From Naegleria gruberi (lineage: Eukaryota), in the NCBI GenBank assembly GCA_000004985.1, contig GG738894.1: 64,000 bases of DNA. One strand, written 5' to 3'. The stretch's first letter is position 1, and the number at the start of each line of letters is the position of its first letter. Shown here one piece after another: positions 4,389 through 17,267 of this stretch. The position numbers and the translations under genes are program-made. The notes under the pieces are model-generated. The model saw nothing but the letters and a program-made list of their open reading frames with translations. It was not told the DNA's origin and ran no database searches.

Positions 4389-5420
4389 ATGGATGATTAC
4401 GATGCAATTAATAATCTAGATGTAGGGACACCCCATGATAGGACGGACATTGATCTGGTTCCACTTGCAATTACTGACAATTTGGATGAATTGACTATAA
4501 AGGAATTTGATGAATTACAATCAGCCTTGATTATTCGAGCAGATACATCAGAACCTGCCCACTTTATGCAATGTATTGAAGAGAGATTGTGTTATTATGT
4601 TAAAAATCCAAAATTATTCAAGACTTCGGAGGAGTCCACTGAATCACATTGGACGAGATTCATGCTCGATCAGAAATGTATATTCAAGAAGGTGGATAGG
4701 ATTAATGAATCCAGTTTTTGTAGCTTGCAACCTCAAGTGATGAGGAGCTTTCTGAGAGGATATAATATTGTTTTCTTCACGTTATATTCTGGAACTTATA
4801 CGGGATTTGATTCAGTTGTTGTAGGTGTGATTAATGATTTAATCAACAGTGGAGAGTTGTCTGTAGTGTTTTTGAGAGGAGCAGGACGATCAGTTCCAAT
4901 GAGACTTGGTTTTGTGAGAAGAAAGGACGCAAATGATGGTTATGTGGAGTATACAGATGGAACTTATGTACAACTCTTGCTTCAAAATATTAAGCAATTG
5001 GATAATCAGAGCTTGACTATATTTGTGAATAAGTGTATGAACAAATTAGAAAATAGAGTTCAAACAATTGGTGAAGTGGAAGAGACTATTGAGGATTGTT
5101 TGAAATTGGATGATTTATACATTTGTGGAGTTTGTGACACCACCTTGAGTAATGTAAATGATTGGCATTTACTTGCTAGGAGTGTAAGTGAAAGGGAGAA
5201 ATATCCATGGGTTATTCACAAAACTAAGAAGGTAATGTTCACTCCATGGTATGGATATAGTCATGGAAATGAAAACCAATGCCTACTGACCTTGTATGCA
5301 TTGAGATATCTTTTGTATGAACATATGAAGCACTTCCACAATATCAATAGTTTCAAATCTAATTTATTGATCAAAATAATTAACAATCAACTCTCTGATA
5401 TCTCAATAGATTTTGAATAA
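4389..5420 (+). CDS. Hypothetical protein (343 aa), no recognisable domain
   Basis: Long ORF with an A-rich ATG context (caaaaaaaATGg) and codon usage similar to neighbouring genes. No family recognised by reading. Confidence 0.5.
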   Translation: MDDYDAINNLDVGTPHDRTDIDLVPLAITDNLDELTIKEFDELQSALIIRADTSEPAHFMQCIEERLCYYVKNPKLFKTSEESTESHWTRFMLDQKCIFKKVDRINESSFCSLQPQVMRSFLRGYNIVFFTLYSGTYTGFDSVVVGVINDLINSGELSVVFLRGAGRSVPMRLGFVRRKDANDGYVEYTDGTYVQLLLQNIKQLDNQSLTIFVNKCMNKLENRVQTIGEVEETIEDCLKLDDLYICGVCDTTLSNVNDWHLLARSVSEREKYPWVIHKTKKVMFTPWYGYSHGNENQCLLTLYALRYLLYEHMKHFHNINSFKSNLLIKIINNQLSDISIDFE

Positions 5421-5482
5421 ATTCTATTTATCAAGAACATTTTGAACGCAACTTTCAATGTTTTGACTCTATGTATCATCTG

Positions 5483-5502
5483 TTTCTTGGGTACCCAAGA
5501 AA
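5483..5502. other. 20-bp perfect palindrome tttcttgggtacccaagaaa between two + strand ORFs
   Basis: Read directly from the sequence; the reverse complement is identical. Centred on GGTACC. Confidence 0.6.
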
Positions 5503-5630
5503 TGTTGTTCAAAAAGTTATTTTTGTAATATGTAACACACAAATAACTTTAATTCCTTTTTCAAAATTCTTTTAATAGCACAAAAATCTCATGCCAATCA
5601 ATGAATTCAACACAAAAAGAATAACACAAC

Positions 5631-6026
5631 ATGAATAACAATAATTTTAACAATAATAGTAACAACATGATGAATAATAATAGAAGAGTAGGAGATCAAG
5701 ATTTAAATCCATTGCCTTGTTTTCAACCTTTACATGGAAATGCTCCTTCCTCAATGAGTGGTGGATTTGGTGGCAATCAAGTTGGACCAAATAATCCAAT
5801 TTTCAATGATCGTTCGAATTTTCCTTCTGCTTCTTCAATAATGGGAGGAGATATGAAACCTCCTCAGATGTTACCAGGTTCTCGATTTGATCCAGTTTAT
5901 CCTACCATTGAACCATTTGGAGGTTCTGGAAGTGGAAATAGAGGAGGTAATTCTTCATCATCTTCATTTGGAAATGTTAATCCAGATCATCACAAACCTC
6001 CACAATTTGAAGATGAAGATTTGTAA
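5631..6026 (+). CDS. N-rich low-complexity protein (131 aa) with PI31 (proteasome inhibitor, PSMF1)-like C-terminal motifs; may be a terminal exon of a longer gene
   Basis: MNNNNFNNNSNN… start. The C-terminal half is Gly/Pro-rich with …GSRFDPVYP…NPDHHKPPQFEDEDL, resembling the PI31 tail (…ARFDPFGP…NPDHLPPPGYDDMYL, recalled from memory). No FP domain is visible upstream, and a terminal HbYX Tyr is absent. Confidence 0.4.
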   Translation: MNNNNFNNNSNNMMNNNRRVGDQDLNPLPCFQPLHGNAPSSMSGGFGGNQVGPNNPIFNDRSNFPSASSIMGGDMKPPQMLPGSRFDPVYPTIEPFGGSGSGNRGGNSSSSSFGNVNPDHHKPPQFEDEDL

Positions 6027-6070
6027 TTATTTCTAAAGATTGAAACAAGAGATTCAACAATATAGCCCGA

Positions 6071-6148
6071 GTTAATATGTAAAATGAATAAATTTCTGCA
6101 TCCAATTATTTAAATATTCTTTATATTCATTGTATTAAGGAAATGAAT
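6071..6148 (+). promoter_or_regulatory. Conserved 5' flank shared by 5S copies 1 and 3 (putative upstream promoter element or repeat-unit sequence)
   Basis: …tgtaaaatgaataaattt(c/t)tgc(a/c)t(c/t)ccaattatt(t/a)aaatattctttatattcattgtattaaggaaatgaatgg is near-identical at 6071-6148 and 16964-17041. It is absent upstream of copy 2. Confidence 0.6.
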
Positions 6149-6266
6149 GGCTACGGCCATATCACGATGAATGCACCTCATCCCGTCCGATTTGAGAAGT
6201 TAAGCATCGTCGAGCCACATCAGTACTGAGGTTGGAGACAACTTGGGAACCTGTGGTGCTGTAGTC
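6149..6266 (+). rRNA. 5S rRNA gene, copy 1 (118 nt)
   Basis: ggctacggccatatcac…catcccgtccgatttgagaagttaagc…agtactgaggttggagacaacttgggaacctgtggtgctgtagtc. Helix I 5'/3' ends are complementary, loop C and box-A/box-C regions are conserved, and it is followed by TTTTT. It resembles dictyostelid 5S (GGUUGGAGACAAC…GGGAAC). Confidence 0.9.
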
Positions 6267-6271
6267 TTTTT
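6267..6271 (+). terminator. Pol III T5 terminator after 5S copy 1
   Basis: A ttttt run immediately 3' of the 5S end. Confidence 0.7.
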
Positions 6272-6803
6272 AATTTCAATTTAATTTCAAGCTTATTGTT
6301 TTTACAGCTTTAAATATTGAAATGTAGAGAACATTGAAATGGAAATGTTCAAATATGTGAAGAAAATTAAATACAAATCATTTGACATTTAAAGAACTTT
6401 ATTGAAAAACTTGTAAATTCAATCTTATCCAAATTGTTTGGGTTGTTGTTTACTATTAAGGAGACTCTTTTAACTGCTGTGGATTCACATTACTGCAAAT
6501 ACTTGGTTACAATCAGGGATTCCCTCCCTCTACATTAATTATCAGCCCTCTCGCCACTCTTTCTAGAACGATTTGATTGGACAAGAGGGCTCAATGAATC
6601 TATGAAAATACTCGACTGAAGATTCATTGCAGTAGGTTTCTTTTTTAATTGAACAAGAGACAATTTTCACATTCAAGCCAGCTCTCTTTCTATTCATATT
6701 TTAGGAAATGCCACTTTCAAACTTTTGAAGCAAACATTGATGAATGAAATTTTCATTTGATCAACAAGTTCATAGAAGGATCAATATCAGTTATATCTGT
6801 CTT

Positions 6804-6850
6804 CTACGGCCATATCACCTCATCTCAATTAGGAACCTGTCTTTTTGTCT
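6804..6850 (+). pseudogene. Internally deleted 5S rRNA relic
   Basis: ctacggccatatcac|ctcatc…aggaacctgt|ctttttgtc retains the 5S 5' end, part of loop C and the 3' end with a T-run, but lacks ~80 internal nt. Confidence 0.45.
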
Positions 6851-7934
6851 TATTGATTTTTCAAGGGTAAGTTGGCCTAGTTGTCCACTTCCATTTCACA
6901 GATTATTATAGCATTTGTGCAAGGAATGAGGAAATTCTCCACTTAATTAGTTGTTTCTTACAACTTCGGGAGGAAGTTCTTAAAAATTGTGAGCTGATCT
7001 TGAAGCCATGATGGAAATTGCTCCACCTCAATAATTTAATCAAGTCAACATTCAATTATTTTCTTGAATTGAAATTTATATTTTTCACACATAAAAGTAC
7101 CACAATTTTTTAACCTCACTTTTCACACATTCAAAACCAATATCACAAACCTCACAAATCAAACTAGATAAAACCATTGACTGTACTTCTACAGGATCTT
7201 TTCTGTAGGAATACATAAACTCGACTTTTTTGAGTCAATCTGACCTTTGAGGTTAACCAAGATGAAGACTCTGTAGTCATATATCTTGAGCATGATATCG
7301 AACTGGAAACATGCTTCGTTGTAGGTTTCCTCGTTCATAGATGATTGCTGCATTCCTTACCAGCCATGGTTTGTGAATGGGGGATTTGTGAACATGCAGA
7401 TTGGTACCTTAATTTTTTTAATAATTAATAGAAACTTAAACAATTTCAATGAACCTATGTTTCTTTTGTTGATTTTCACTCATCATGTGAACATGCAGAT
7501 CTATTAGATCTATTTGGAACTTTCTTTGCATTTTAGGTACATAAATGAAAGAGTTCTTCACTACCTTGGCCAACAGATTGAAATTTATAAGGAAATTCAA
7601 AAAGATCAGTTATCAAATTTTGTCACCCCTTTAATTGAAACTTCCATTTCAGAGTTGGATCTATTTTTAAAGAAAGAATTATACCATAATGAAATGAATG
7701 TTTTCAATTCTAACATCACGATCAGCTCATTTCTCTGAAGTGTTGGTGGCGAAACTCCATCCATGCCTTTTTTACCTCCTGTTAAAATTTCATTAAGAAT
7801 TTGAATGGAACTTTGGTATTAGTTTTATCTGGTTCAAAACCATCAATTTTCGAATGGTGTTTTAGTACTCACTCACAAATTAAACTATAACAAATTAAGA
7901 GATAGCTCATTATCTTAATTTTTATAACAACAAT

Positions 7935-8052
7935 GGCTACGGCCATATCACGATGAATGTACCTCATCCCGTCCGATTTGAGAAGTTAAGCATCGTCGAG
8001 CCACATCAGTACTGAGGTTGGAGACAACTTGGGAACCTGTGGTGCTGTAGTC
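7935..8052 (+). rRNA. 5S rRNA gene, copy 2 (118 nt; one substitution, c->t, relative to copies 1 and 3; different 5' flank)
   Basis: Same sequence as copy 1 except gaatgTacctc. Followed by ttttta. Confidence 0.9.
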
Positions 8053-8057
8053 TTTTT
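8053..8057 (+). terminator. Pol III T5 terminator after 5S copy 2
   Basis: A ttttt run. Confidence 0.7.
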
Positions 8058-8245
8058 ATATTTTCCAAAACGAATGTCAAATTTCCTTTTTAGAGTCTAT
8101 TGAAAATGCATTTAATTTGTCAACTACATCATTTGTCATAGTGTTTGTCAATTCTAACAACAAAAAATACCACACGCATCCATTTTCAATAATAAATTAA
8201 ATAATACCACAGGATCACTACAGTCAACACATCATTATCATCATC

Positions 8246-8764
8246 ATGGTCAAACACTCCGTCAAGAAACTCATTCCACTGAGTAGAGAAGAATATTGGA
8301 AAATAATATTTACTGATGATTTTGATAAATTCACAGCTCCTCTGCTCAAATTCAACAAAGTTGAAACTGAAACACTTCCAAGTGAAGATGTTAATATTGT
8401 CAAGAGAACTGCCAAAGTCTTTCCAGATTATGACATTCCCCATGCATTGTTGCACTTGTTAGGTCAGGAAGAATTTCACTATGTCGATCATCAGGAAAAG
8501 AATTTATTGAACTATACCATGAATAGTAATACTATGCCTCCACTGAGTCATCACGATATTCTAAAGATCAGTACTCATCAACATATTGAACCAATTGACG
8601 AACATAGTTGTTATCATGTTTTGGAAACAGAAATTCACTGTTCTGTGTTGTTACTTGGTCACTTGGTTGAGAAGGCAATTATTCATGGTGTTGAGAATGG
8701 TTATGATTTATTACCAAAAGCCGTGGAAGCTTACATTGCTCACTTGAATTCGGAAGTAAAATAA
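8246..8764 (+). CDS. Hypothetical protein (172 aa)
   Basis: ORF with ATG after an in-frame TAA upstream. No clear family; a faint resemblance of the N-terminus (MVK…YWKIIF) to PRELI/MSF1-type lipid-binding proteins is not reliable. Confidence 0.4.
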   Translation: MVKHSVKKLIPLSREEYWKIIFTDDFDKFTAPLLKFNKVETETLPSEDVNIVKRTAKVFPDYDIPHALLHLLGQEEFHYVDHQEKNLLNYTMNSNTMPPLSHHDILKISTHQHIEPIDEHSCYHVLETEIHCSVLLLGHLVEKAIIHGVENGYDLLPKAVEAYIAHLNSEVK

Positions 8765-8849
8765 TTTGAATTTGAACCACTCTATTTTTAAATTATGCAA
8801 ATAATATGAAAATAGTTATGAAAATGAATGTGCATTTATGAAATTGAAG

Positions 8850-8925
8850 AAGAGGTTCATTTTCGTAAGTGAATCAGAGGTTCAAATTCAAACAAGTCTG
8901 AAAATGAAGCTGTGGAGGTTCAAGT
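8850..8925 (+). promoter_or_regulatory. Three direct repeats of (A/G)GAGGTTCA spaced ~25-35 bp apart, ~150-220 bp upstream of the EF-2-like ATG
   Basis: gaagaagaggttcatttt / cagaggttcaaattc / ggaggttcaagttg, read directly from the sequence. Confidence 0.3.
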
Positions 8926-9068
8926 TGAAAGCAAGCAAATTTAGCTCTATTTAAACACCTCTCAAAAGTATTCTCACTCCATCAAACAAACAAAAAAAAA
9001 CAACAAATTAACTAACAGCTCATTCAATAGCTCAATATTCAAATACAGATTATTTAAATAATTACAAT

Positions 9069-11633
9069 ATGGTCAAGTTCAGTAAAGAAATACTCGAAAG
9101 GCTCTTACTCGACAGTAACAAGATTCGTAACATTAGTATTATTGCTCACGTTGATCATGGTAAATCAACACTCACTGATCAATTGGCTTTAGCAGCTGGT
9201 TTAGTGGATGAAGATGCTGCAGGTGAGAAGAGAGTTTGCGACGTAGATAAGAATGAAATTGAAAAGGGTATTACCATTAAATCAACAAGTTTGAGTATGG
9301 TTTTGGAAAATCCAGACAAGGAGAATGATCATCATTTGGTTAATTTGATCGATTGTCCAGGTCACATTGATTTCTCATCTGAAGTTAGTACAGCTTTGAG
9401 AATTACTGATGGTGCAGTGTTGATTGTAGATGCTGCTGAAGGTTGTAGAGGTCAAACTGAAACAGTAATTAGACAATCTCTTCAAGAAAGAATTCGTCCA
9501 GTTCTCTTCATTAACAAGGTTGACCGTTTAATTGAAGAAATGCAATTTACTGAAGAAGAAAGTTATCAAAACTTTTTAAGAATTATCGAGTCTGTGAATG
9601 CTCTATTATCAACTTATTCTGATGAGTCAGTTTCTGTTGATCCAGTTGATTGTAACATTGCTTTTGGATCAGGTAAGATGGGTTGGGCTTTCACTTTGGA
9701 GCAATTCGCTCAATTATATAGCAAGAAGTTTAAACTTCCTGTAGAGAAGGTTATTAACAAATTATGGGGTGAAAATTATTATGATCACTCAACTAAGAAG
9801 TTTACCACTGAACCTTATTCATCGACAAGTGGTCAACAATTGAAGCACACTTTCTGTGAATTCATTTTAGAACCTATTTTCAAGATTTTCAAGTTGGTTA
9901 GAGAACATGAAATTTCGAGTGAAGGTATTTTGTCAACAGATTTGGAAAATATCATTAGTGCATTGTCTATACCTCTGACGAAAGAAGAAAAGAGAAAAGA
10001 GCCGAAACTTTTAGCTAAATCAATCATGAGAAAGTTCCTCCCAGCTCACAAACCTCTAGTTCAAATGATTATCAACCATTTACCTTCTCCTAAGGAAGCT
10101 CAAAAGGTCAGATATGATAGCCTCTACACTGGTGAAGATTTGACAGATCCATACGCTACTGGTATTAAGGAATGTGATCCAAATGCACCACTGGTTGTCT
10201 ATGTCAGTAAGATGGTACCTATGCACTCTAATACTAGCTCTAGTATGAGTAATAATGTTGGTCGTTTTATTGCTCTAGCTCGTATATTCTCTGGTAGTTT
10301 GACTCAATCAACTAAGGTGAGAATTTTGGGTCCTAACTATGATCCAATTGCTAAGAAAGATGTTTTCCATACAAGTATTCAAAGATTGTTAGTCATGATT
10401 GGTAAAAATACTGAAAGCATCACTCAAGCTTCTTGTGGTGCCATCGTAGGTATTGTTGGTCTTGACAAGTACATTATCAAATCATGTACATTGACAGAAG
10501 AAGGACAAGTTGCATGCATGCCAATTAAGAATATGAAATACTCTGTGAGTCCTGTAGTTCAAATGGGAGTTGAGCCAGTCAATCCAGCAGATTTATCTCG
10601 ATTTGTTGAAGGTTTGAAACGTCTCGTTCAAAGTGATCCTCTATTGGAATGTAAGCAAAATGATAGTGGTCAACATATTCTTGGAACAGCAGGTGAATTG
10701 CATTTGGAAATTTGTTTAAAGAATTTAGAAGAAGAATATGCAAGAGGAATTCAAATTAAAAAGTCTCCTCCTGTTGTCACTTTCCACGAAACAGTTTCAA
10801 ATAAGAATGGTGACATGGTCATGGCAAGAAGTGCTAACGGCCACAATCGTTTATATATGCAAGCTGAACCAATCAGTGAGGAATTAATTGAAATGATTAA
10901 GGAAGGTCAATTGCCAATGGATGATCAAAATAAGAGAGCAAAGATTTTAGAAATTGACTTTGAATGGGATCCTAGCATAACAAAGAGAATTTGGAGTTTT
11001 GGACCTGAAGCTGATAAGGGTAGTAACATTTTGGTAAATGCAACCAAGTCAGTTGACTATATTAATGAAATTCAACAATATGTGGTCACTAGCTTCCAAC
11101 AAAGCAGTTCTTCAGGAGGTTTATGTGACGAAGCAATGAGAGGTGTTTTATTCAAATTTAATGATTGTAATCTTCATGCAGATTCTATCCATCGTGGAGC
11201 TGGTCAAATTCTCCAAGCAACATCTCGTGTCATGACTGCTAGTCAATTGAGAGCTGATCCAAAGTTAGTTGAACCAATGTATCTTGTTGAAGTTCAATGT
11301 CCTCAATCAGTGATGGGTTCTGTCTATAGTGTCATTTCTAATAGAAGAGGTGTTATCAAATCTACTGAAATGGTAATTGGTACTCCTCTCGTTAGTATAA
11401 CTGGTAATTTACCTGTGCTGGAAAGTTTCGGTTTAACAGAAGAGTTGAGAGGTGTTACTCAAGGACAAGCTTTCCCTCAATGTAGTTTCAGTCACTGGAA
11501 AGTTATGGAAGACAATGTTTATGATCCTCAATCTAAAGTTCACAAACTCATCAAATCTATCAGAAAGAGAAAGGGTCTTAAGGAAGATATACCACTCTAC
11601 ACAGATTACTGTGATACAATGCCTAAACAATAA
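9069..11633 (+). CDS. Elongation factor 2 family GTPase, EF-2 paralog (854 aa, intronless)
   Basis: N-terminus MVKFSKEILERLLLDSNKIRNISIIAHVDHGKSTLTD, the G-domain motifs NLIDCPGHIDFSSEV and NKVDR, domain IV LHADSIHRGAGQ (diphthamide His kept) and a C-terminus …ESFGLTEELRGVTQGQAFPQCSFSHWKVM…RKRKGLKEDIP collinear with EF-2. It diverges from canonical EF-2, while the neighbouring RPL30 and PPIH are highly conserved, so it is likely a paralog rather than the translational EF-2. Confidence 0.85.
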   Translation: MVKFSKEILERLLLDSNKIRNISIIAHVDHGKSTLTDQLALAAGLVDEDAAGEKRVCDVDKNEIEKGITIKSTSLSMVLENPDKENDHHLVNLIDCPGHIDFSSEVSTALRITDGAVLIVDAAEGCRGQTETVIRQSLQERIRPVLFINKVDRLIEEMQFTEEESYQNFLRIIESVNALLSTYSDESVSVDPVDCNIAFGSGKMGWAFTLEQFAQLYSKKFKLPVEKVINKLWGENYYDHSTKKFTTEPYSSTSGQQLKHTFCEFILEPIFKIFKLVREHEISSEGILSTDLENIISALSIPLTKEEKRKEPKLLAKSIMRKFLPAHKPLVQMIINHLPSPKEAQKVRYDSLYTGEDLTDPYATGIKECDPNAPLVVYVSKMVPMHSNTSSSMSNNVGRFIALARIFSGSLTQSTKVRILGPNYDPIAKKDVFHTSIQRLLVMIGKNTESITQASCGAIVGIVGLDKYIIKSCTLTEEGQVACMPIKNMKYSVSPVVQMGVEPVNPADLSRFVEGLKRLVQSDPLLECKQNDSGQHILGTAGELHLEICLKNLEEEYARGIQIKKSPPVVTFHETVSNKNGDMVMARSANGHNRLYMQAEPISEELIEMIKEGQLPMDDQNKRAKILEIDFEWDPSITKRIWSFGPEADKGSNILVNATKSVDYINEIQQYVVTSFQQSSSSGGLCDEAMRGVLFKFNDCNLHADSIHRGAGQILQATSRVMTASQLRADPKLVEPMYLVEVQCPQSVMGSVYSVISNRRGVIKSTEMVIGTPLVSITGNLPVLESFGLTEELRGVTQGQAFPQCSFSHWKVMEDNVYDPQSKVHKLIKSIRKRKGLKEDIPLYTDYCDTMPKQ

Positions 11634-11684
11634 GAGTTTTAACATTTAGTAATAAATTACCTTTTTCTCCAATCTTGCCATAGC

Positions 11685-12680
11685 TTATTTTCTTAGTGAT
11701 ATTAATTGTTTCATTTCACTTATGAATTTTGCTCCTTCACCACCAATTCGATTGCCAGCAATATCAAGTGATGTCAATTGTTTCATTTCACTAATGAATT
11801 TAGCTCCTGCATTACCAATTTCATTGCGAGTAATATTAAGTGATGTTAACTGCTTCATTTCATTGATGTATTTTGCTCCTTCATCACCAATTACATTGTA
11901 AGAAATATTAAGTGATGTTAATTGTTTCATATCACCTATGAATTTAGCTCCTGCATCACCAATTACATTGTTAGCAATATTAAGTGATGTTAATTGTTTC
12001 ATTTCACTTATCAATTTTACTTCTTCATCACCAATTTGATTTCCACCAATATCAAGTGATATTAATTGTTTCATTTCACTAATGTATTTTGCTCCTTCAC
12101 CACCAATTCTATTATTATATATATAAAGTGATGTTAATTGTTTCATTCCACTGATGAATTTTGCTCCTTCACCACCAATTACATTGCCATTAATATTAAG
12201 TGATGTTAATTGTTTCATTTCACTTATCAATTTTGCTCCTTCACCATCAATTCGATTGTAACTAATATCGAGTGATATTAATTGTTTCATTTCACTGATA
12301 AATTTGAGTTTTTCTATGCCTCCAAGCAAATATCCCAAAAATTTAAGATTAACAATACTATTCATAAATTGACTTTTCATGAATAATTCAACTCGTTTCT
12401 CTGTAAATTTTTTTTTAAATTGAATAACAAGTTTTGAACGTTCCTTGATCACATTAAAGAATTGTTTTGAAATTAAAGTACAATTATTTAAAATAAACCA
12501 CGAATCATCAATCATGCAAATTATTTCAAAACAAATATCATCTGAAAATGTTTCTTGTTCGAGTTTCACATGCTTTTTTACTTTCTCTTCCATAATATTA
12601 TTATTATTATTGTTAGTGAATATTTCATCCGAACTAATTAATTGATGATTTTCAAAATCTTGTCTGTTTCGTTTGCTCAT
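11685..12680 (-). CDS. Leucine-rich repeat protein (RNI-like 24-aa LRRs, ~8-9 units) with a weak F-box-like N-terminal region
   Basis: Repeats such as ISEMKQLTSLNI.NNVIGDEGAKFI, each 24 aa. The N-terminus …DDICFEIICMIDDSWFILNNCTLISKQFFNVI is loosely F-box-like. Confidence 0.8.
   Translation of the reverse strand: MSKRNRQDFENHQLISSDEIFTNNNNNNIMEEKVKKHVKLEQETFSDDICFEIICMIDDSWFILNNCTLISKQFFNVIKERSKLVIQFKKKFTEKRVELFMKSQFMNSIVNLKFLGYLLGGIEKLKFISEMKQLISLDISYNRIDGEGAKLISEMKQLTSLNINGNVIGGEGAKFISGMKQLTSLYIYNNRIGGEGAKYISEMKQLISLDIGGNQIGDEEVKLISEMKQLTSLNIANNVIGDAGAKFIGDMKQLTSLNISYNVIGDEGAKYINEMKQLTSLNITRNEIGNAGAKFISEMKQLTSLDIAGNRIGGEGAKFISEMKQLISLRK
11698..12300. repeat. Tandem array of ~8 near-identical 72-bp units (coding for the LRRs)
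   Basis: The unit …attaattgtttcatttcact(t/a)atgaatttt/agctcct(t/g)ca(c/t)caccaatt… recurs with 72-bp periodicity and high nucleotide identity. Confidence 0.85.
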
Positions 12681-12864
12681 TTTTTTTTAAATTCATGTTA
12701 AGGCTTTGATTCATGGCTAATTTGGATTCAATCTCAGAAACAAAATTGAAATAGCACCGTTCTGAAAGTAGCTTCTCCCATTCATTGATAGAAGAGTTCT
12801 TATTGGTACTCAAAATACTTTCCTGAAACATTTGTGGATAACGTATATTCTTTGTGAATGTAAA

Positions 12865-12937
12865 GGGGATGTAGCTCACATGGTAGAGCGCTTCTTTAGC
12901 ATGGAAGAGGTACGGGGATCGATACCCCGCATCTCCA
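12865..12937 (+). tRNA. tRNA-Ala(AGC): tRNA-Ala (anticodon AGC), 73 nt
   Basis: ggggatgtagctcacatggtagagcgcttctttagcatggaagaggtacggggatcgataccccgcatctcca. The cloverleaf folds, with a G3:U70 identity pair and discriminator A73. Nearly identical to metazoan tRNA-Ala-AGC. Followed by T6. Confidence 0.95.
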
Positions 12938-12944
12938 CTCTATC

Positions 12945-12950
12945 TTTTTT
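12945..12950 (+). terminator. Pol III T6 terminator 3' of tRNA-Ala
   Basis: A tttttt run 8 nt after the tRNA end. Confidence 0.7.
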
Positions 12951-13411
12951 ACGGCATTCAAAATAATTCAATATGGCATATGTGATTTGCTAAACGAAAA
13001 GTTAAAAACATGCACACCAGCTTACGATTTCATTGGTGTTGTGTTTGGTTCAACGACAATAAATGTTGCTTTTAATAATTAACCACAAGTGTCATTTTTA
13101 AAATGATCAAAATTCAAAAGTGATAAATAGATGGTGATCAAGCTAGATCTATTTCTTCAACAACCTGTTTCGCATTGAACAAAACAAGATTCGTCAAAAG
13201 AACTCTTGAATTCACTGTTCATACAGTCAAAGACTGTAGCGGGATTGTCGCCATATTCCTGGCAGGCTTCCCGTCCAAATTATTAATTGAATCTTATTAG
13301 AACATTCTTCCTCATTTACTTGACAAACAAAAAAAACTTTAGTTTGTTCTTGATATTTATTTAGCTCTTGAGGGATTGAGTGCAATTAACTCAAGGAATT
13401 GGCTTTCTAAA

Positions 13412-16400
13412 CTAGGCCAATTCAACATCAGTGGCACCAGCCATAATTAAATCTTTTGCCAATGAAGCAGATGCTTTCTTCTTCATCATGATTACAATAG
13501 TTGTAATCAATACAGCAACACCACCTCCAATAACTGCAACAGAAACAATTGGAACAACAACTGCTGCAACAATCACTCCTGTATTCTCACTGTGTACTGA
13601 GTCAATAGCAAGGAAAGGAAGCGAAGTCAATCTTGCTGAAATCTGAGGAATGTTTTTTAGTTGAAGAGAAAGAGCTGTTTCAGTTTCAACTCTGAAGGAA
13701 ATGAGCGTCGAGTTGAGGGAAAGAGCTGCCTTAGCTGTTAAGGAACCTGTTTTGGAAAGAGAGGCTGGTAGATTAAATGGAATGGAAGATGTCAGCTGTT
13801 GGTGGACAGTTGAAGAGGAATCAAATTGACCATCTAATAGGAATTCAATAAAAATGTTAATGGATTGGTTGACATAATAATCAAGAAATGAAGAATCTTG
13901 AATGGAAAGAGAAATAATGGTTGAAATATCTCCAACAATATCACTAGTATTGTTGAATGATAACTTCATTGCTTGGGAAAGGAATTTAAATTGACACTTA
14001 TTGCCAATGAAATCCTTCTTACAATGACAGGTGTCATAATTAACACAATCACCTTGAGAGGAGCAAACTTTTGAATCAACAGATGTTTCACCATAACAAT
14101 AGGTAATGTTACATTGTGGTCCGAACCATTTGCTTTCATTCACACATTTACAGTAATCAAATGAACGACAAGTTCCATTTCCAAGATTGCAAACTTGTGA
14201 GCTTTCTTGTTCTATGCCAAAACATGAAGTAAATTGACAATTTGATCCACTGTATCCATATTCACATTCACATTGATCTACATTAAGGCATGTTCCTCTT
14301 CCACTACATACAGAGCTTGAACTTTCCAATATTCCATTGCATTCCACTAGTTCACAATTGTTTCCTCCAAATCCATTCTCACAAATGCAAGTATTCAAGA
14401 ATTTGCAAACACCATGAGAATTACAAACTCTTGTTGAATTGAATTCGACACCATTACATTTAAAGTATTGACATTCTTCACCAAAATAATTGAAATCACA
14501 TTTACAATAATCAGTTGACAAACATTTTCCATTTCCAGAACAAGATCTATTATCCAACTTTTCAATGCCAAAGCAGATTGGATTTTTAAGCTTGCATTCA
14601 TTTGGTGCATCGCAATACTGTTCAGTATCATTGCAGACACTGCTGTCATTTGCCAATTTACCAAAACAAATTGGAAATTGACACGTTGTCGAAGGTCCAT
14701 ATCCATCTGAACAATTACAATTGTTATAGGAAATGCATTTTCCATTTCCAAAGCAAACATTGCTGTCATCAGAAGGTACAGAATTACAAGTAGTTTTTTC
14801 ACAATTAGTTCCATAATAATTCGAATCACATTTACAATAGTTTGGATTCGTACATTGACCATTCGAAGAACAAGCTCTGGAATTGTTGGAAGGAACTCCG
14901 TGACAGATAGGTATCTCACAATTCAATCCAGTCCATCCACTGTTGCAGCTGCAAGTATCTGGAGCTAGGCAAGTACCGTTTCCTTGATTACAGATTTGAT
15001 TAGTTTGATTCGAATAGATACCAAAACAGTTAATCAATTCACATTCAGATCCATCATACCCACTCATGCATTGACACTGATTCGGTGCTGTACAATTTCC
15101 ATGAGAATTACAAACCAATGGATCTGTACCAAGTTTCGTATTACAAAAAGGAATTTCACATTGAGATCCTCCATATTTGGAATTACATTGACACTGATCA
15201 ACTGAAATGCAATTTCCTTGTCCTGAACATACACTCAATGATTGATTTGCTAAAATTCCAAAACAAATTGGAATTTCACAAAAACTGCCAGAGTACATTG
15301 AGGAATTAAAACATTGACAAGTGTCATATTCAAGACAATTGCCATTTCCAGAACAAACAGATGGATCATTAGAGAGTGTACCATTACATTTTGATATATT
15401 GCAAAATGTTCCTTCGTAATTTTCATTGCATTCACAAATATTGTAATCAACGCATGTTCCATGATTCGAACAAGTATTTGAATTATTCGAAAACTTTCCA
15501 TCACAAGTAGTGACATTACACTCAATTCCATAATAATTGGAATTACATGAACAATTATTCACATCTATACATTCACCATTCATACTACAATATAAAGTTG
15601 AATTCTTTCCAAAACATTTTGGCAGTTCACATGCCATACCATAATAATTATTGTTACATTGACAGGTGTCCACATCAATACATAATCCATGTGATGGGCC
15701 TCCACATGCTTCATTCCCAGACTTTGTGAAACACAATGGATTGCATAATCTTCCATCAGAGCTCAATACTAAACCATCCTCACAGTATGGATATAATTTC
15801 CTAACAGTTCCAGAAGCAATCATTTCAGTAATGTAAACTTCATTCTTTCCACTCACAAAAATTCCATTTGTATTGCTTATTAAACAAGTAAGCGCATCTG
15901 AATCGTCTGGACAACTGGAGCCAATTAGTCCAACACCAGCAATTTGCCTTAACGTTCCATTATAAACCTTAACTCTACCTGATGATTCAGCAATATAGAA
16001 TTCATTCTTACTTGTTCTAAATATACCCTTTGGAGAGGAAAGATTCTTGAGAAAGTAAGTTCCAGAACTAGCAGAGCCATAAGCTCCTGGTTTACCAATG
16101 CAATCAAACGAACTGAAATAAATATCTGATGGGAAAGAAAGTGCCACTCCAACGGGTTTATCGAAAACATCTAATACATAATAATTTTGTGAGGCCAAGT
16201 TGAAAATTCCAATATCACCATTTCCAAATATTCCATAAATGGCAAAAACTAATTGATTTAATCTCTTGTCTAAAATTAAAAATCTTACATTACCAACACC
16301 AGTTTTTAGTGTTGTAATGGTATTGGAAATTTCATCAACAACCCGTATATTGCCATTATCTTCGCCAATGTAAATTTTTCGGCTAGTTTCGTCCACCCAA

Positions 16401-16803
16401 ATATAAGGTCTTGCTATTTAAAGTTATAACAGAGGAATTATATTTTGATAACCTACTTAATTGTGCTTGTGTAGGAACCATCACTGCACTACTAGTATCA
16501 GAGCCTCCACCAGCCACAATTACTTTCGTTCCATTAGTATAAATTCTAATAGAGAATCATGATCATATTGAACATAAACAGGACGAAACAACAACACACT
16601 TACTTGCTCACGACACTCTCTTCAGCTACATAAATATCTCCATTCTCAAACACGCTGACTGAAGTTGGTTTTACCAATGAATCAACCACTGTTCTAATCT
16701 TGAATTTCACATCTGCAGATTTTGTCAAGTGGGGAAACACGAAAAGCAAGCTAAAAATTAACACAATTGAGTTGATGACTACCCATTTGTTGTTGTTGAG
16801 CAT
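13412..16803 (-). CDS. Type I membrane protein: signal peptide + NHL/beta-propeller-like region + ~two dozen tenascin/laminin-type EGF repeats + single TM + short tail. Three exons (16803-16604, 16545-16457, 16413-13412)
   Basis: Exon 1 starts MLNNNKWVVINSIVLIFSLLFVFPHLTKS (signal peptide) and ends with donor agcaa|gtaagt; intron 1 is 58 nt. Exon 2 is 89 nt (…IYTNGTKVIVAGGGSDTS…); intron 2 is 43 nt (gtaggt…aaatag) and is needed to avoid an in-frame TAG. The large exon has repeated C.C…Y.G..C EGF motifs throughout and a C-terminal TM VIVAAVVVPIVSVAVIGGGVAVLITTIVIMM followed by KKK. Splice phases are consistent. Confidence 0.8.
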
Positions 16804-16963
16804 TTTGTTTTTGCGGTAAGATTAATTTGTTGTGAAAAAAGAAACTGTCAAGTCCATCAAAATATTCATAAAAGATGTGTTTCCTTTTTCAAACAATTAT
16901 GAATAAATTAAGCAAAAAATGGACCAATATACAGGCTAAGATGTAATTTCACTCTTTGTTCCT

Positions 16964-17041
16964 AGTTATTTGTAAAATGAATAAATTTTGCCTTCCAATT
17001 ATTAAAATATTCTTTATATTCATTGTATTAAGGAAATGAAT
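16964..17041 (+). promoter_or_regulatory. Conserved 5' flank of 5S copy 3 (same element as 6071-6148)
   Basis: Near-identical to the copy-1 flank. Confidence 0.6.
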
Positions 17042-17159
17042 GGCTACGGCCATATCACGATGAATGCACCTCATCCCGTCCGATTTGAGAAGTTAAGCAT
17101 CGTCGAGCCACATCAGTACTGAGGTTGGAGACAACTTGGGAACCTGTGGTGCTGTAGTC
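17042..17159 (+). rRNA. 5S rRNA gene, copy 3 (identical to copy 1)
   Basis: 118-nt sequence identical to copy 1, followed by ttttta. Confidence 0.9.
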
Positions 17160-17164
17160 TTTTT
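17160..17164 (+). terminator. Pol III T5 terminator after 5S copy 3
   Basis: A ttttt run. Confidence 0.7.
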
Positions 17165-17267
17165 ATCAAATTATACATAATACATTCGAAATCATTTTAT
17201 TGGAAAGGTATTCTGGTATTGCACTTTAAAGTTTACAAAATGTTCGAACAAAAAATCAACAAAAAAA

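Follow-up and report, generated by a model that had tools for sequence, protein, structure and literature searches.

Scattered families of 5S rRNA genes reportedly have their primary descriptions in Selker 1981, Metzenberg 1985, Morzycka-Wroblewska 1985, Mao 1982 and Zwick 1991. In Neurospora and fission yeast, the function of a box upstream of the gene has been demonstrated by experiment, and the corresponding box of Naegleria is a candidate defined by sequence. Rooney and Ward 2005 are said to have described birth-and-death evolution with purifying selection, or else concerted evolution, for the dispersed 5S genes of filamentous fungi, and the linkage of 5S genes to SL RNA, snRNA and tRNA genes has reportedly been reviewed by Drouin and Tsang 2012. 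The scattered families of Neurospora crassa, Schizosaccharomyces pombe and Acanthamoeba castellanii are covered in a review (PMC1635290), and array units of tRNA and 5S genes have been treated in Entamoeba (PMC2652664). For Naegleria gruberi, Feng et al. (2012, PLoS One; PMC3369914, Table S1 and Figure 2) listed 279 putative 5S genes, among them all three considered here, which are thus genes already known and catalogued in 2012. The same paper reported an internal control region (ICR) together with an upstream TATA box for these genes, found no detectable TFIIIA in N. gruberi, and scored the 5S genes as unlinked to the rDNA unit; its catalogue holds no description of shared flanks, of a 5S relic, or of linkage to U3 or tRNA genes.

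We analyzed a stretch of 64,000 nucleotides (the window), in which positions 1-24509 hold sequence letters and the remainder is N. The three 5S copies are spaced 1786 and 9107 nt apart, exactly as are the scaffold_50 entries starting at 134152, 135938 and 145045 in Table S1, and exact protein matches in the window span EFC40134-40139 of N. gruberi NEG-M. The window is very probably scaffold_50 of this strain at approximately 128-192 kb, and the expectation that the 5S organization would be informative about the organism was borne out, the organism being N. gruberi.

Table 1 Features of the 5S loci and their surroundings, in window positions
Feature	Position	Strand	Evidence
5S rRNA copy 1	6149-6267	+	RF00001 full-length, 105.4 bits, E=4e-22; Table S1 (PMC3369914) scaffold_50:134152-134268
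5S rRNA copy 2	7935-8053	+	RF00001, 103.0 bits; Table S1 (PMC3369914) scaffold_50:135938-136054
5S rRNA copy 3	17042-17160	+	RF00001, 105.4 bits; Table S1 (PMC3369914) scaffold_50:145045-145161
Upstream block, copy 1	6067-6148 (-82 to -1)	+	BLAST, global alignment; holds TATATTC at -27 to -21
Upstream block, copy 3	16961-17041 (-81 to -1)	+	Repeat finder, BLAST, global alignment
5S relic	6804-6847	+	Exact 15-mer CTACGGCCATATCAC; alignment to 5S gene
U3 snoRNA gene	7177-7405	+	RF00012 full-length, 75 bits, E=2e-14; between 5S copies 1 and 2
tRNA-Ala(AGC) gene	12865-12937	+	ARAGORN; RF00005, 53.6 bits

All three 5S genes cover positions 1-120 of the 120 in the RF00001 model (gathering score, 38), with no non-canonical pairs flagged. 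The initial annotation had described three 118-nt genes on the plus strand; Rfam confirmed their positions and strand and gave a length of 119 nt by the model, the two lengths differing because the last T is counted either with the gene or with the T-run. Sequence comparison upheld the identity of copies 1 and 3 and the single substitution in copy 2, a C26 to T change at window position 7960 that is wobble-compatible and that cmscan keeps as a paired position. Directly 3' of all three genes lies GTCTTTTTA, a Pol III terminator by the criterion of four or more consecutive T; the T5 of copy 1 occupies 6267-6271, and T5 also ends copies 2 and 3. By eye, 5S positions 50-64 and 80-97 look like the Xenopus boxes, in bases that are also constrained by RNA structure. 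The three loci are probably ordinary, self-contained 5S genes that would be transcribed by Pol III.

Reanalysis of Table S1, in which entries of at least 110 nt were kept, left 264 genes on 113 scaffolds. The smallest spacing genome-wide was 1104 bp, with no tandem pair, although the arrangement was scored as 'tandem' in the catalogue whose own coordinates these are (no spacing below 1.1 kb); within the window, no head-to-tail 5S family was found among the direct repeats. A neighbor within 10 kb was observed for 73 of the 264 entries (28%), in comparison to an expected 32 (12%; p ~7e-12). The N. gruberi 5S family (approximately 264-279 copies) is scattered and loosely clustered, without tandem arrays, and this genome-wide arrangement, like the identity and integrity of the three genes, is a matter of observation.

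The intervals between the 5S copies hold intron-free open reading frames with exact matches to N. gruberi proteins, including EFC40137 and EFC40138 (EF2), confirming that the copies are separated by protein-coding genes and form no tandem array. The start codon of EFC40137 lies 193 nt downstream of copy 2 and that of EFC40139 lies 108 nt downstream of copy 3. A location outside an rDNA repeat, likewise claimed in the initial annotation, was borne out by Rfam, which at both the gathering and E<=1 thresholds detected no SSU, LSU or 5.8S sequence in the window. As in Neurospora, S. pombe and Acanthamoeba, near-identical single 5S genes thus sit among protein-coding genes, outside arrays and the rDNA unit, and their coding sequences are uniform despite dispersal. 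Unlike in those organisms, the Naegleria family is loosely clustered, includes at least one pair with a common 82-bp flank, and belongs to another supergroup (Heterolobosea, Discoba).

Three features listed in Table 1, namely the U3 snoRNA gene, the tRNA-Ala gene and the relic, had been overlooked in the initial annotation. A T7 run at 7413-7419 lies 3' of the U3 gene. The tRNA-Ala(AGC) gene, which represents a second kind of Pol III gene within the same 11-kb stretch, is followed 7 nt beyond its end by a T6 run. The relic retains what correspond to 5S positions 3-17, 27-35, 97-103 and 115-119, as well as a T5 run; box A, the intermediate element (IE) and the greater part of box C are missing from it. 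Its 15-mer had 0 chance matches in 100 shuffles. Judged by the alignment to the 5S gene, it is an internally deleted 5S pseudogene fragment. The loci resemble filamentous-fungal 5S genes in that a stretch of 11 kb contains intact genes alongside a decayed relic and a pair of young duplicates, and in that the coding sequence is conserved while the flanks turn over. They also recall the linkage of 5S to small-RNA genes in protists, since N. gruberi 5S genes lie near U3 and tRNA-Ala genes, and a 5S gene in a metagenome contig (L019, considered below) lies close to tRNA-Met and tRNA-Glu genes. In contrast to the Entamoeba array units, the Naegleria linkage is loose and locus-variable, with no fixed repeat unit or tandem array. 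No further Rfam match was found in the window at E<=1, and the region 6430-6655, a candidate for a structured RNA, was discarded as such (z=-1.84). A scan of bacterial-type promoters and terminators, which is not relevant to a eukaryote, returned nothing. The search for orthologues of EFC40139 yielded one N. gruberi paralogue only, and so gave no cross-species footprint of the copy 3 locus.

The near-identical 5' flank of about 75 bp that had been noted on copies 1 and 3 was recovered at a length of 74-82 bp, depending on the program. A repeat finder matched 6075-6272 to 16968-17165 at 97% identity, and BLAST matched 6067-6272 to 16961-17165, a unit of 206 nt (-82 to +124) at 96.1% identity. 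The initial annotation had named membership of the flank in a larger segmental duplication as the first of two objections to its reading. Self-BLAST similarity ended at 6067/16961 and 6272/17165, and the neighboring genes were unrelated; since the sequence on either side of the 206-bp unit is unrelated, the flank is no part of a larger segmental duplication, and this objection falls away.

The differences between copies 1 and 3 are unevenly placed. All 8 fall between -38 and -85, whereas -37 to +124 is 100% identical, so that the distal 48 nt of the flank are approximately 17% diverged (approximately 83% identical). The probability of finding all 8 within the distal 48 of 209 aligned columns is 5e-6, and for the flank alone that of finding zero of 8 in the proximal 37 nt is 0.008. 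The suggestion that a ~200-bp unit was recently duplicated was accordingly upheld as regards the bounded unit, which runs from -82 to the T5A terminator, while the word 'recent' needs qualifying in light of the distal divergence. One simple duplication event of 206 bp, fairly recent and followed by no homogenization, with the distal differences due to chance or to local variation in mutation rate, would fit the sharp edges, the overall identity of 96% and the absence of similarity beyond them. We nevertheless regard it as unlikely, because divergence confined to the distal part, with -37 to +124 identical, does not suit a single clock-like event; selection on the RNA accounts for part of the pattern but not for 37 identical non-coding nucleotides.

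Another reading is that 5S transcripts were retroposed, or that a mobile element carried the 5S gene. An 8-nt direct repeat, TTTTTATA, lies on either side of copy 2 (7919 and 8053), and the truncated relic lies close by, both of which could be expected of such an origin. The repeat overlaps the terminator, however, and has a chance probability of approximately 0.03; copies 1 and 3 are flanked neither by a target-site duplication nor by any direct repeat of 6 nt or longer. Moreover, 82 bp of non-transcribed upstream sequence would not travel with Pol III transcripts, there is no A-tail, nor any other tail beyond T5, and no transposon-like open reading frame or terminal repeat lies nearby. Retroposition or mobile-element transport is therefore highly improbable.

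We then considered the shared flank in relation to other 5S loci. Local alignment of the copy 2 flank with the shared block was no better than with shuffles (p=0.87), in agreement with the earlier statement that this flank is unrelated. A metagenome scan yielded 14 loci, of which 1 (L007) had a Naegleria-type 5S, 11 came from an uncultured relative whose 5S is approximately 78-82% identical, and 2 from other organisms. The protein database was also searched for spurious open reading frames running through 5S genes; concatenated open frames within the 5S gene led to three ENA contigs (L017, L018 and L019), of which only L019 has an upstream flank, since the other two, L017 and L018, break off within the gene or at its edge. 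The reverse open reading frame that extends from the 5S gene into the shared block gave no match in that database. Neither a bacterial and archaeal genome collection, scanned with two 5S patterns, nor a viral collection gave any match. The upstream flank is known for 5 of approximately 270 Naegleria 5S loci, namely copies 1-3, L007 and L019, the latter two from metagenome assemblies; L007 is placed in Naegleria solely on a 5S sequence differing by 1 nt.

The initial annotation had asked whether the flank recurs at other 5S loci, and within these five loci it does not do so outside copies 1 and 3. The 82-bp block was absent upstream of L007 and L019 (shuffle p>0.15), and neither the rest of the window nor any other locus retrieved contains it (approximately 80 kb of Naegleria-type sequence). 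Among the flanks of copy 1, copy 2, L007 and L019, no pair exceeded shuffles, leaving copies 1 and 3 as the sole similar pair. As in Neurospora, S. pombe and Acanthamoeba, homology between copies is for the most part confined to the transcribed region and its terminator. A by-eye resemblance of the L019 flank to the block (GTATTAAG, TTCTTAT) did not exceed shuffles (p=0.15-0.19) and was rejected. The proposal that the block of about 75 bp is a promoter element required for transcription was not sustained, since it is missing at copy 2, L007 and L019, albeit in a small sample, and so is no general promoter. L019 is weaker as evidence that functional genes do without it, because its 5S is a 121-nt variant and may be a pseudogene. 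As the sample is 5 flanks of approximately 270, the block may yet turn out to mark a 5S subfamily of considerable size.

In a rival reading, the 82-bp block, or at least its proximal 37 bp, is a subfamily-specific promoter module kept by selection, such that flank subfamilies mark differently regulated 5S genes. Consistent with it, -37 to -1 is fully identical against 8 differences in -38 to -85, the heptamer TATATTC of the block also occurs 5' of the tRNA-Ala gene, and the lack of detectable TFIIIA (PMC3369914) would raise the weight of upstream elements. Yet the 5S genes of copy 2, L007 and L019 are intact or nearly so, and their flanks are unrelated, with only a few anchored positions in common; evidently a wide range of sequences will do, and one would not expect all 37 positions to be held fixed by selection. 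The lack of any further copy of the block in approximately 80 kb of Naegleria-type sequence also argues against it, and we hold such a module to be improbable.

What the independent flanks do have in common is a short signature anchored at the start of the gene: T-32, T-28, A-26, T-22 and AT at -2/-1. Across four independent Naegleria flanks, 8 invariant start-anchored columns were observed in comparison to 1.9 expected (P ~0.001), and copy 2 also carries the signature. In the uncultured relative, whose 5S genes are likewise scattered, at least 6 of 8 flanks that show no other relationship carry TATa at -26 to -23. The idea of an upstream promoter element is not supported for the long block but may hold for the short signature at -32 to -22 with AT at -2/-1, whose conservation is statistically supported. 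The signature is of the TATA-like type known upstream of 5S genes in Neurospora and fission yeast and would act as a promoter element; a short TATA-like box about 25-30 nt upstream is a further likeness to Neurospora, S. pombe and Acanthamoeba.

If N. gruberi truly has no TFIIIA (PMC3369914), upstream sequence would matter more than our preferred explanation assumes. In that case the main promoter of the 5S genes might be an upstream one of the TBP/Brf type, made up of the -32 to -22 signature and the AT|G start, with -37 to -1 of copies 1 and 3 as a strong version and these copies as a candidate preferentially expressed subfamily; we put this forward as a rather doubtful extension.

We consider it likely, on balance, that copies 1-3 are ordinary 5S genes of a scattered family, and that the flank shared by copies 1 and 3 arose by a small duplication at the DNA level and was later kept uniform near the gene. 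Each gene would appear to be self-sufficient, with an internal control region, a T5 terminator and the short upstream signature. A unit of approximately 206 bp, from -82 to the terminator, may have been copied by DNA-level duplication or ectopic copying, giving rise to copies 1 and 3, after which the distal flank would have drifted by approximately 17% while -37 to +124 stayed, or was made again, identical. The divergence gradient suggests gene conversion as the homogenizing force, most likely together with the purifying selection that would keep the family near-identical. The identical stretch from -37 to -1 is equally expected from purifying selection on a functional core promoter, which counts against this explanation.

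In summary, the dispersed 5S arrangement seen at this locus is the genome-wide rule in N. gruberi and has little import beyond housekeeping. The published 'tandem' scoring is corrected by the paper's own coordinates to a scattered and loosely clustered arrangement. Naegleria is thereby added to the small set of eukaryotes with scattered 5S genes, alongside Neurospora, fission yeast and Acanthamoeba. We know of no experimental study of Pol III promoters in Heterolobosea, for which the start-anchored signature provides a cheap and testable candidate Pol III upstream promoter.

Real sequence occupies only positions 1-24509 of the window; positions 24510-64000 are ~39.5 kb of N, representing a scaffold gap or masking, and sequence thus makes up 38% of the window. 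An Rfam scan of the window identified five + strand genes for small RNAs, and a more permissive Rfam scan added none. 5S copies 1 and 3 were identical, and copy 2 carried one change, C26T at 7960, at a position still scored as paired by cmscan. All three 5S genes end at the 3' side in GTCTTTTTA, a Pol III terminator.

Small-RNA genes of the window and the decayed 5S copy
Feature	Position	Strand	Support
5S rRNA copy 1	6149-6267	+	Rfam, 105.4 bits
5S relic	6804-6847	+	
U3 snoRNA	7177-7405	+	Rfam, 75 bits
5S rRNA copy 2	7935-8053	+	Rfam, 103.0 bits
tRNA-Ala(AGC)	12865-12937	+	Rfam; ARAGORN concurs
5S rRNA copy 3	17042-17160	+	Rfam, 105.4 bits

All six features (window 6149-17160) share one strand, with same-strand protein-coding starts 193 nt downstream of copy 2 and 108 nt downstream of copy 3. 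The U3 gene lies between two 5S genes inside a 2.2-kb stretch without protein-coding ORFs; it showed no TATA-like box near -25, and a T7 run starting 8 nt past its end would be compatible with termination by Pol III, the situation in plants and trypanosomatids.

Six intron-free window ORFs exactly matched N. gruberi NEG-M proteins EFC40134-EFC40139, which are encoded on a 499,907-bp contig. Feng et al. 2012 (PMC3369914) tabulated 279 putative 5S genes of this species (Table S1); among these, the scaffold_50 entries 134152, 135938 and 145045 are spaced by 1786 and 9107 nt, exactly as in the window. The window therefore corresponds to approximately scaffold_50:128,001-192,000; its three 5S genes are already tabulated, and neither their type of organisation nor the genome is new. 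In the same region (window 4389-11633), EFC40135/40136, EFC40137 and EF2 (EFC40138) have >90% identical paralogues on the same scaffold (EFC40217, 40216 and 40215), with more near-identical EF2 copies on other scaffolds. An ENA contig bearing an EFC40216-type copy showed window homology limited to 8177-8916, and no 5S was found in the 172 nt upstream of the homologous part. Tandem repeats of 72 nt (~83% identity, 11623-12414; ORF 11685-12680, - strand) encode 24-residue leucine-rich repeats (GEGAKFISEMKQLTSL...), and this ORF is adjoined by a 994-residue cysteine-rich protein with EGF-like repeats (13412-16396, - strand).

We reanalysed the Table S1 coordinates using entries of >=110 nt (n=264), which were spread over 113 scaffolds with a minimum neighbour distance of 1104 bp and a median of 33 kb. 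Although N. gruberi 5S is scored 'tandem arrangement: yes' in Table 1 of PMC3369914, that paper's own coordinate list contradicts the score, containing no tandem array and no two entries less than 1.1 kb apart. Of the 264 copies, 73 had another within 10 kb, compared with ~32 expected under random placement in 41 Mb (p ~7e-12). The 5S genes are thus scattered yet form loose clusters, one of which is seen in the window. According to a review (PMC1635290), scattered 5S genes are rare, the named cases being Neurospora, S. pombe and Acanthamoeba; Naegleria joins these in its 5S arrangement.

Rfam, the repeat finder and BLAST bore out the initial annotation's description of dispersed 5S genes, of which copies 1 and 3 are identical with a common flank. 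For that flank it had offered two explanations, a ~75-bp promoter element or a duplicated unit of ~200 bp, and the latter proved the better. Segments 6067-6272 and 16961-17165 form a sharp-edged unit of 206 nt with 96.1% identity (repeat finder and BLAST agree), starting at -82 relative to the gene's first base and ending with the A that follows the T5 run. A larger segmental duplication would have carried neighbouring sequence along; past either edge the alignment was indistinguishable from noise, and the genes adjoining the two units are unrelated. The eight differences between the units all fall within -38 to -85, and -37 to +124 is identical (P=0.008 for 0/8 in the proximal 37 of 85 flank columns; P=5e-6 for 8/8 within the distal 48 of 209 columns). 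The picture is one of an older copy event, after which the gene-proximal part was kept, or again made, uniform.

The 75-bp promoter element was left unsupported. Five Naegleria-type loci have a known flank: the three window genes, L007 (a metagenome-scan locus whose 5S differs by 1 nt) and L019 (ENA ERZ929261), an N. gruberi-like contig on which genes for tRNA-Met and tRNA-Glu flank a variant 5S of 121 nt. L019 emerged from a search for spurious ORFs that run across 5S genes, which yielded three ENA contigs; of the others, L017 has an identical 5S and stops at -2, and L018 is from another species and cut. The 82-bp flank shared by copies 1 and 3 recurred neither in the rest of the window nor in any collected locus, and similarity to it was no better than in shuffles for copy 2 (p=0.87), L007 (p=0.77-0.90) and L019 (p=0.15-0.19). 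It is thus lacking at 3/5 loci, albeit a small sample, and is not a general requirement. The L019 variant itself (T33C plus a 2-nt insertion, 92 bits) sits in a dense Pol III cluster of 1.35 kb (1-1354: tRNA-Glu, tRNA-Met, variant 5S, tRNA-Glu, partial tRNA).

What stood of the upstream-promoter proposal was a much shorter signature. Alignment of four independent flanks (copies 1 and 2, L007, L019) on the first gene base revealed eight invariant columns in -60 to -1 (A-58, T-32, T-28, A-26, T-22, T-14, A-2, T-1), compared with a mean of 1.9 in random intergenic draws (P ~0.001), and seven in -40 to -1, compared with 1.2 expected (P ~0.0005). In copies 1 and 3 the TATA-like box is TATATTC at -27 to -21, a heptamer also found upstream of the tRNA-Ala gene (-21 to -15). 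Copy 2 is flanked by an 8-nt direct repeat, TTTTTATA (7919-7926 and 8053-8060, the right-hand copy overlapping the terminator), which may be a coincidence (chance probability ~0.03) or simply the TATA-like box. In an uncultured relative (L003-L015), TATa occupies -26 to -23 in at least 6/8 scattered 5S genes with otherwise unrelated flanks. The 5S genes of this relative, a protist (L003-L006, L008-L012, L014, L015; metagenome contigs VFQM/VFQO), ~78-82% identical to Naegleria's, are likewise single within unique sequence, preceded by a pyrimidine-rich stretch ending in TTC and followed by TTTTACT. In Neurospora, fission yeast and Arabidopsis, 5S genes combine an internal control region with a short TATA-like box ~25-30 nt upstream; the Naegleria upstream architecture is the same, and the signature is a candidate promoter element. 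For N. gruberi 5S genes, an upstream TATA box has been reported (PMC3369914). One residual possibility is a 5S promoter driven mostly from upstream, in a lineage poor in TFIIIA.

A decayed copy makes a fourth 5S locus, 540 nt downstream of copy 1; the published list of 279 copies (PMC3369914) omits it. Positions 3-17 of 5S are preserved exactly, as a 15-mer absent from all shuffles, together with positions 27-35, 97-103 and 115-119 and the T5 run; both ends are present, and three internal segments, including the central part, are missing.

In the favoured scenario, each 5S gene is an autonomous, presumably transcribed Pol III unit. Retroposition of 5S could also scatter copies, but non-transcribed upstream sequence was copied along, there is no tail, and no direct repeat of >=6 nt surrounds the unit of copy 1 or copy 3 as a target-site duplication; these features argue against retroposition and place dispersal at the DNA level. 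The 1/3 pair would represent the birth of copies, conversion and selection may maintain uniformity in and near the gene, and the relic would represent their death.
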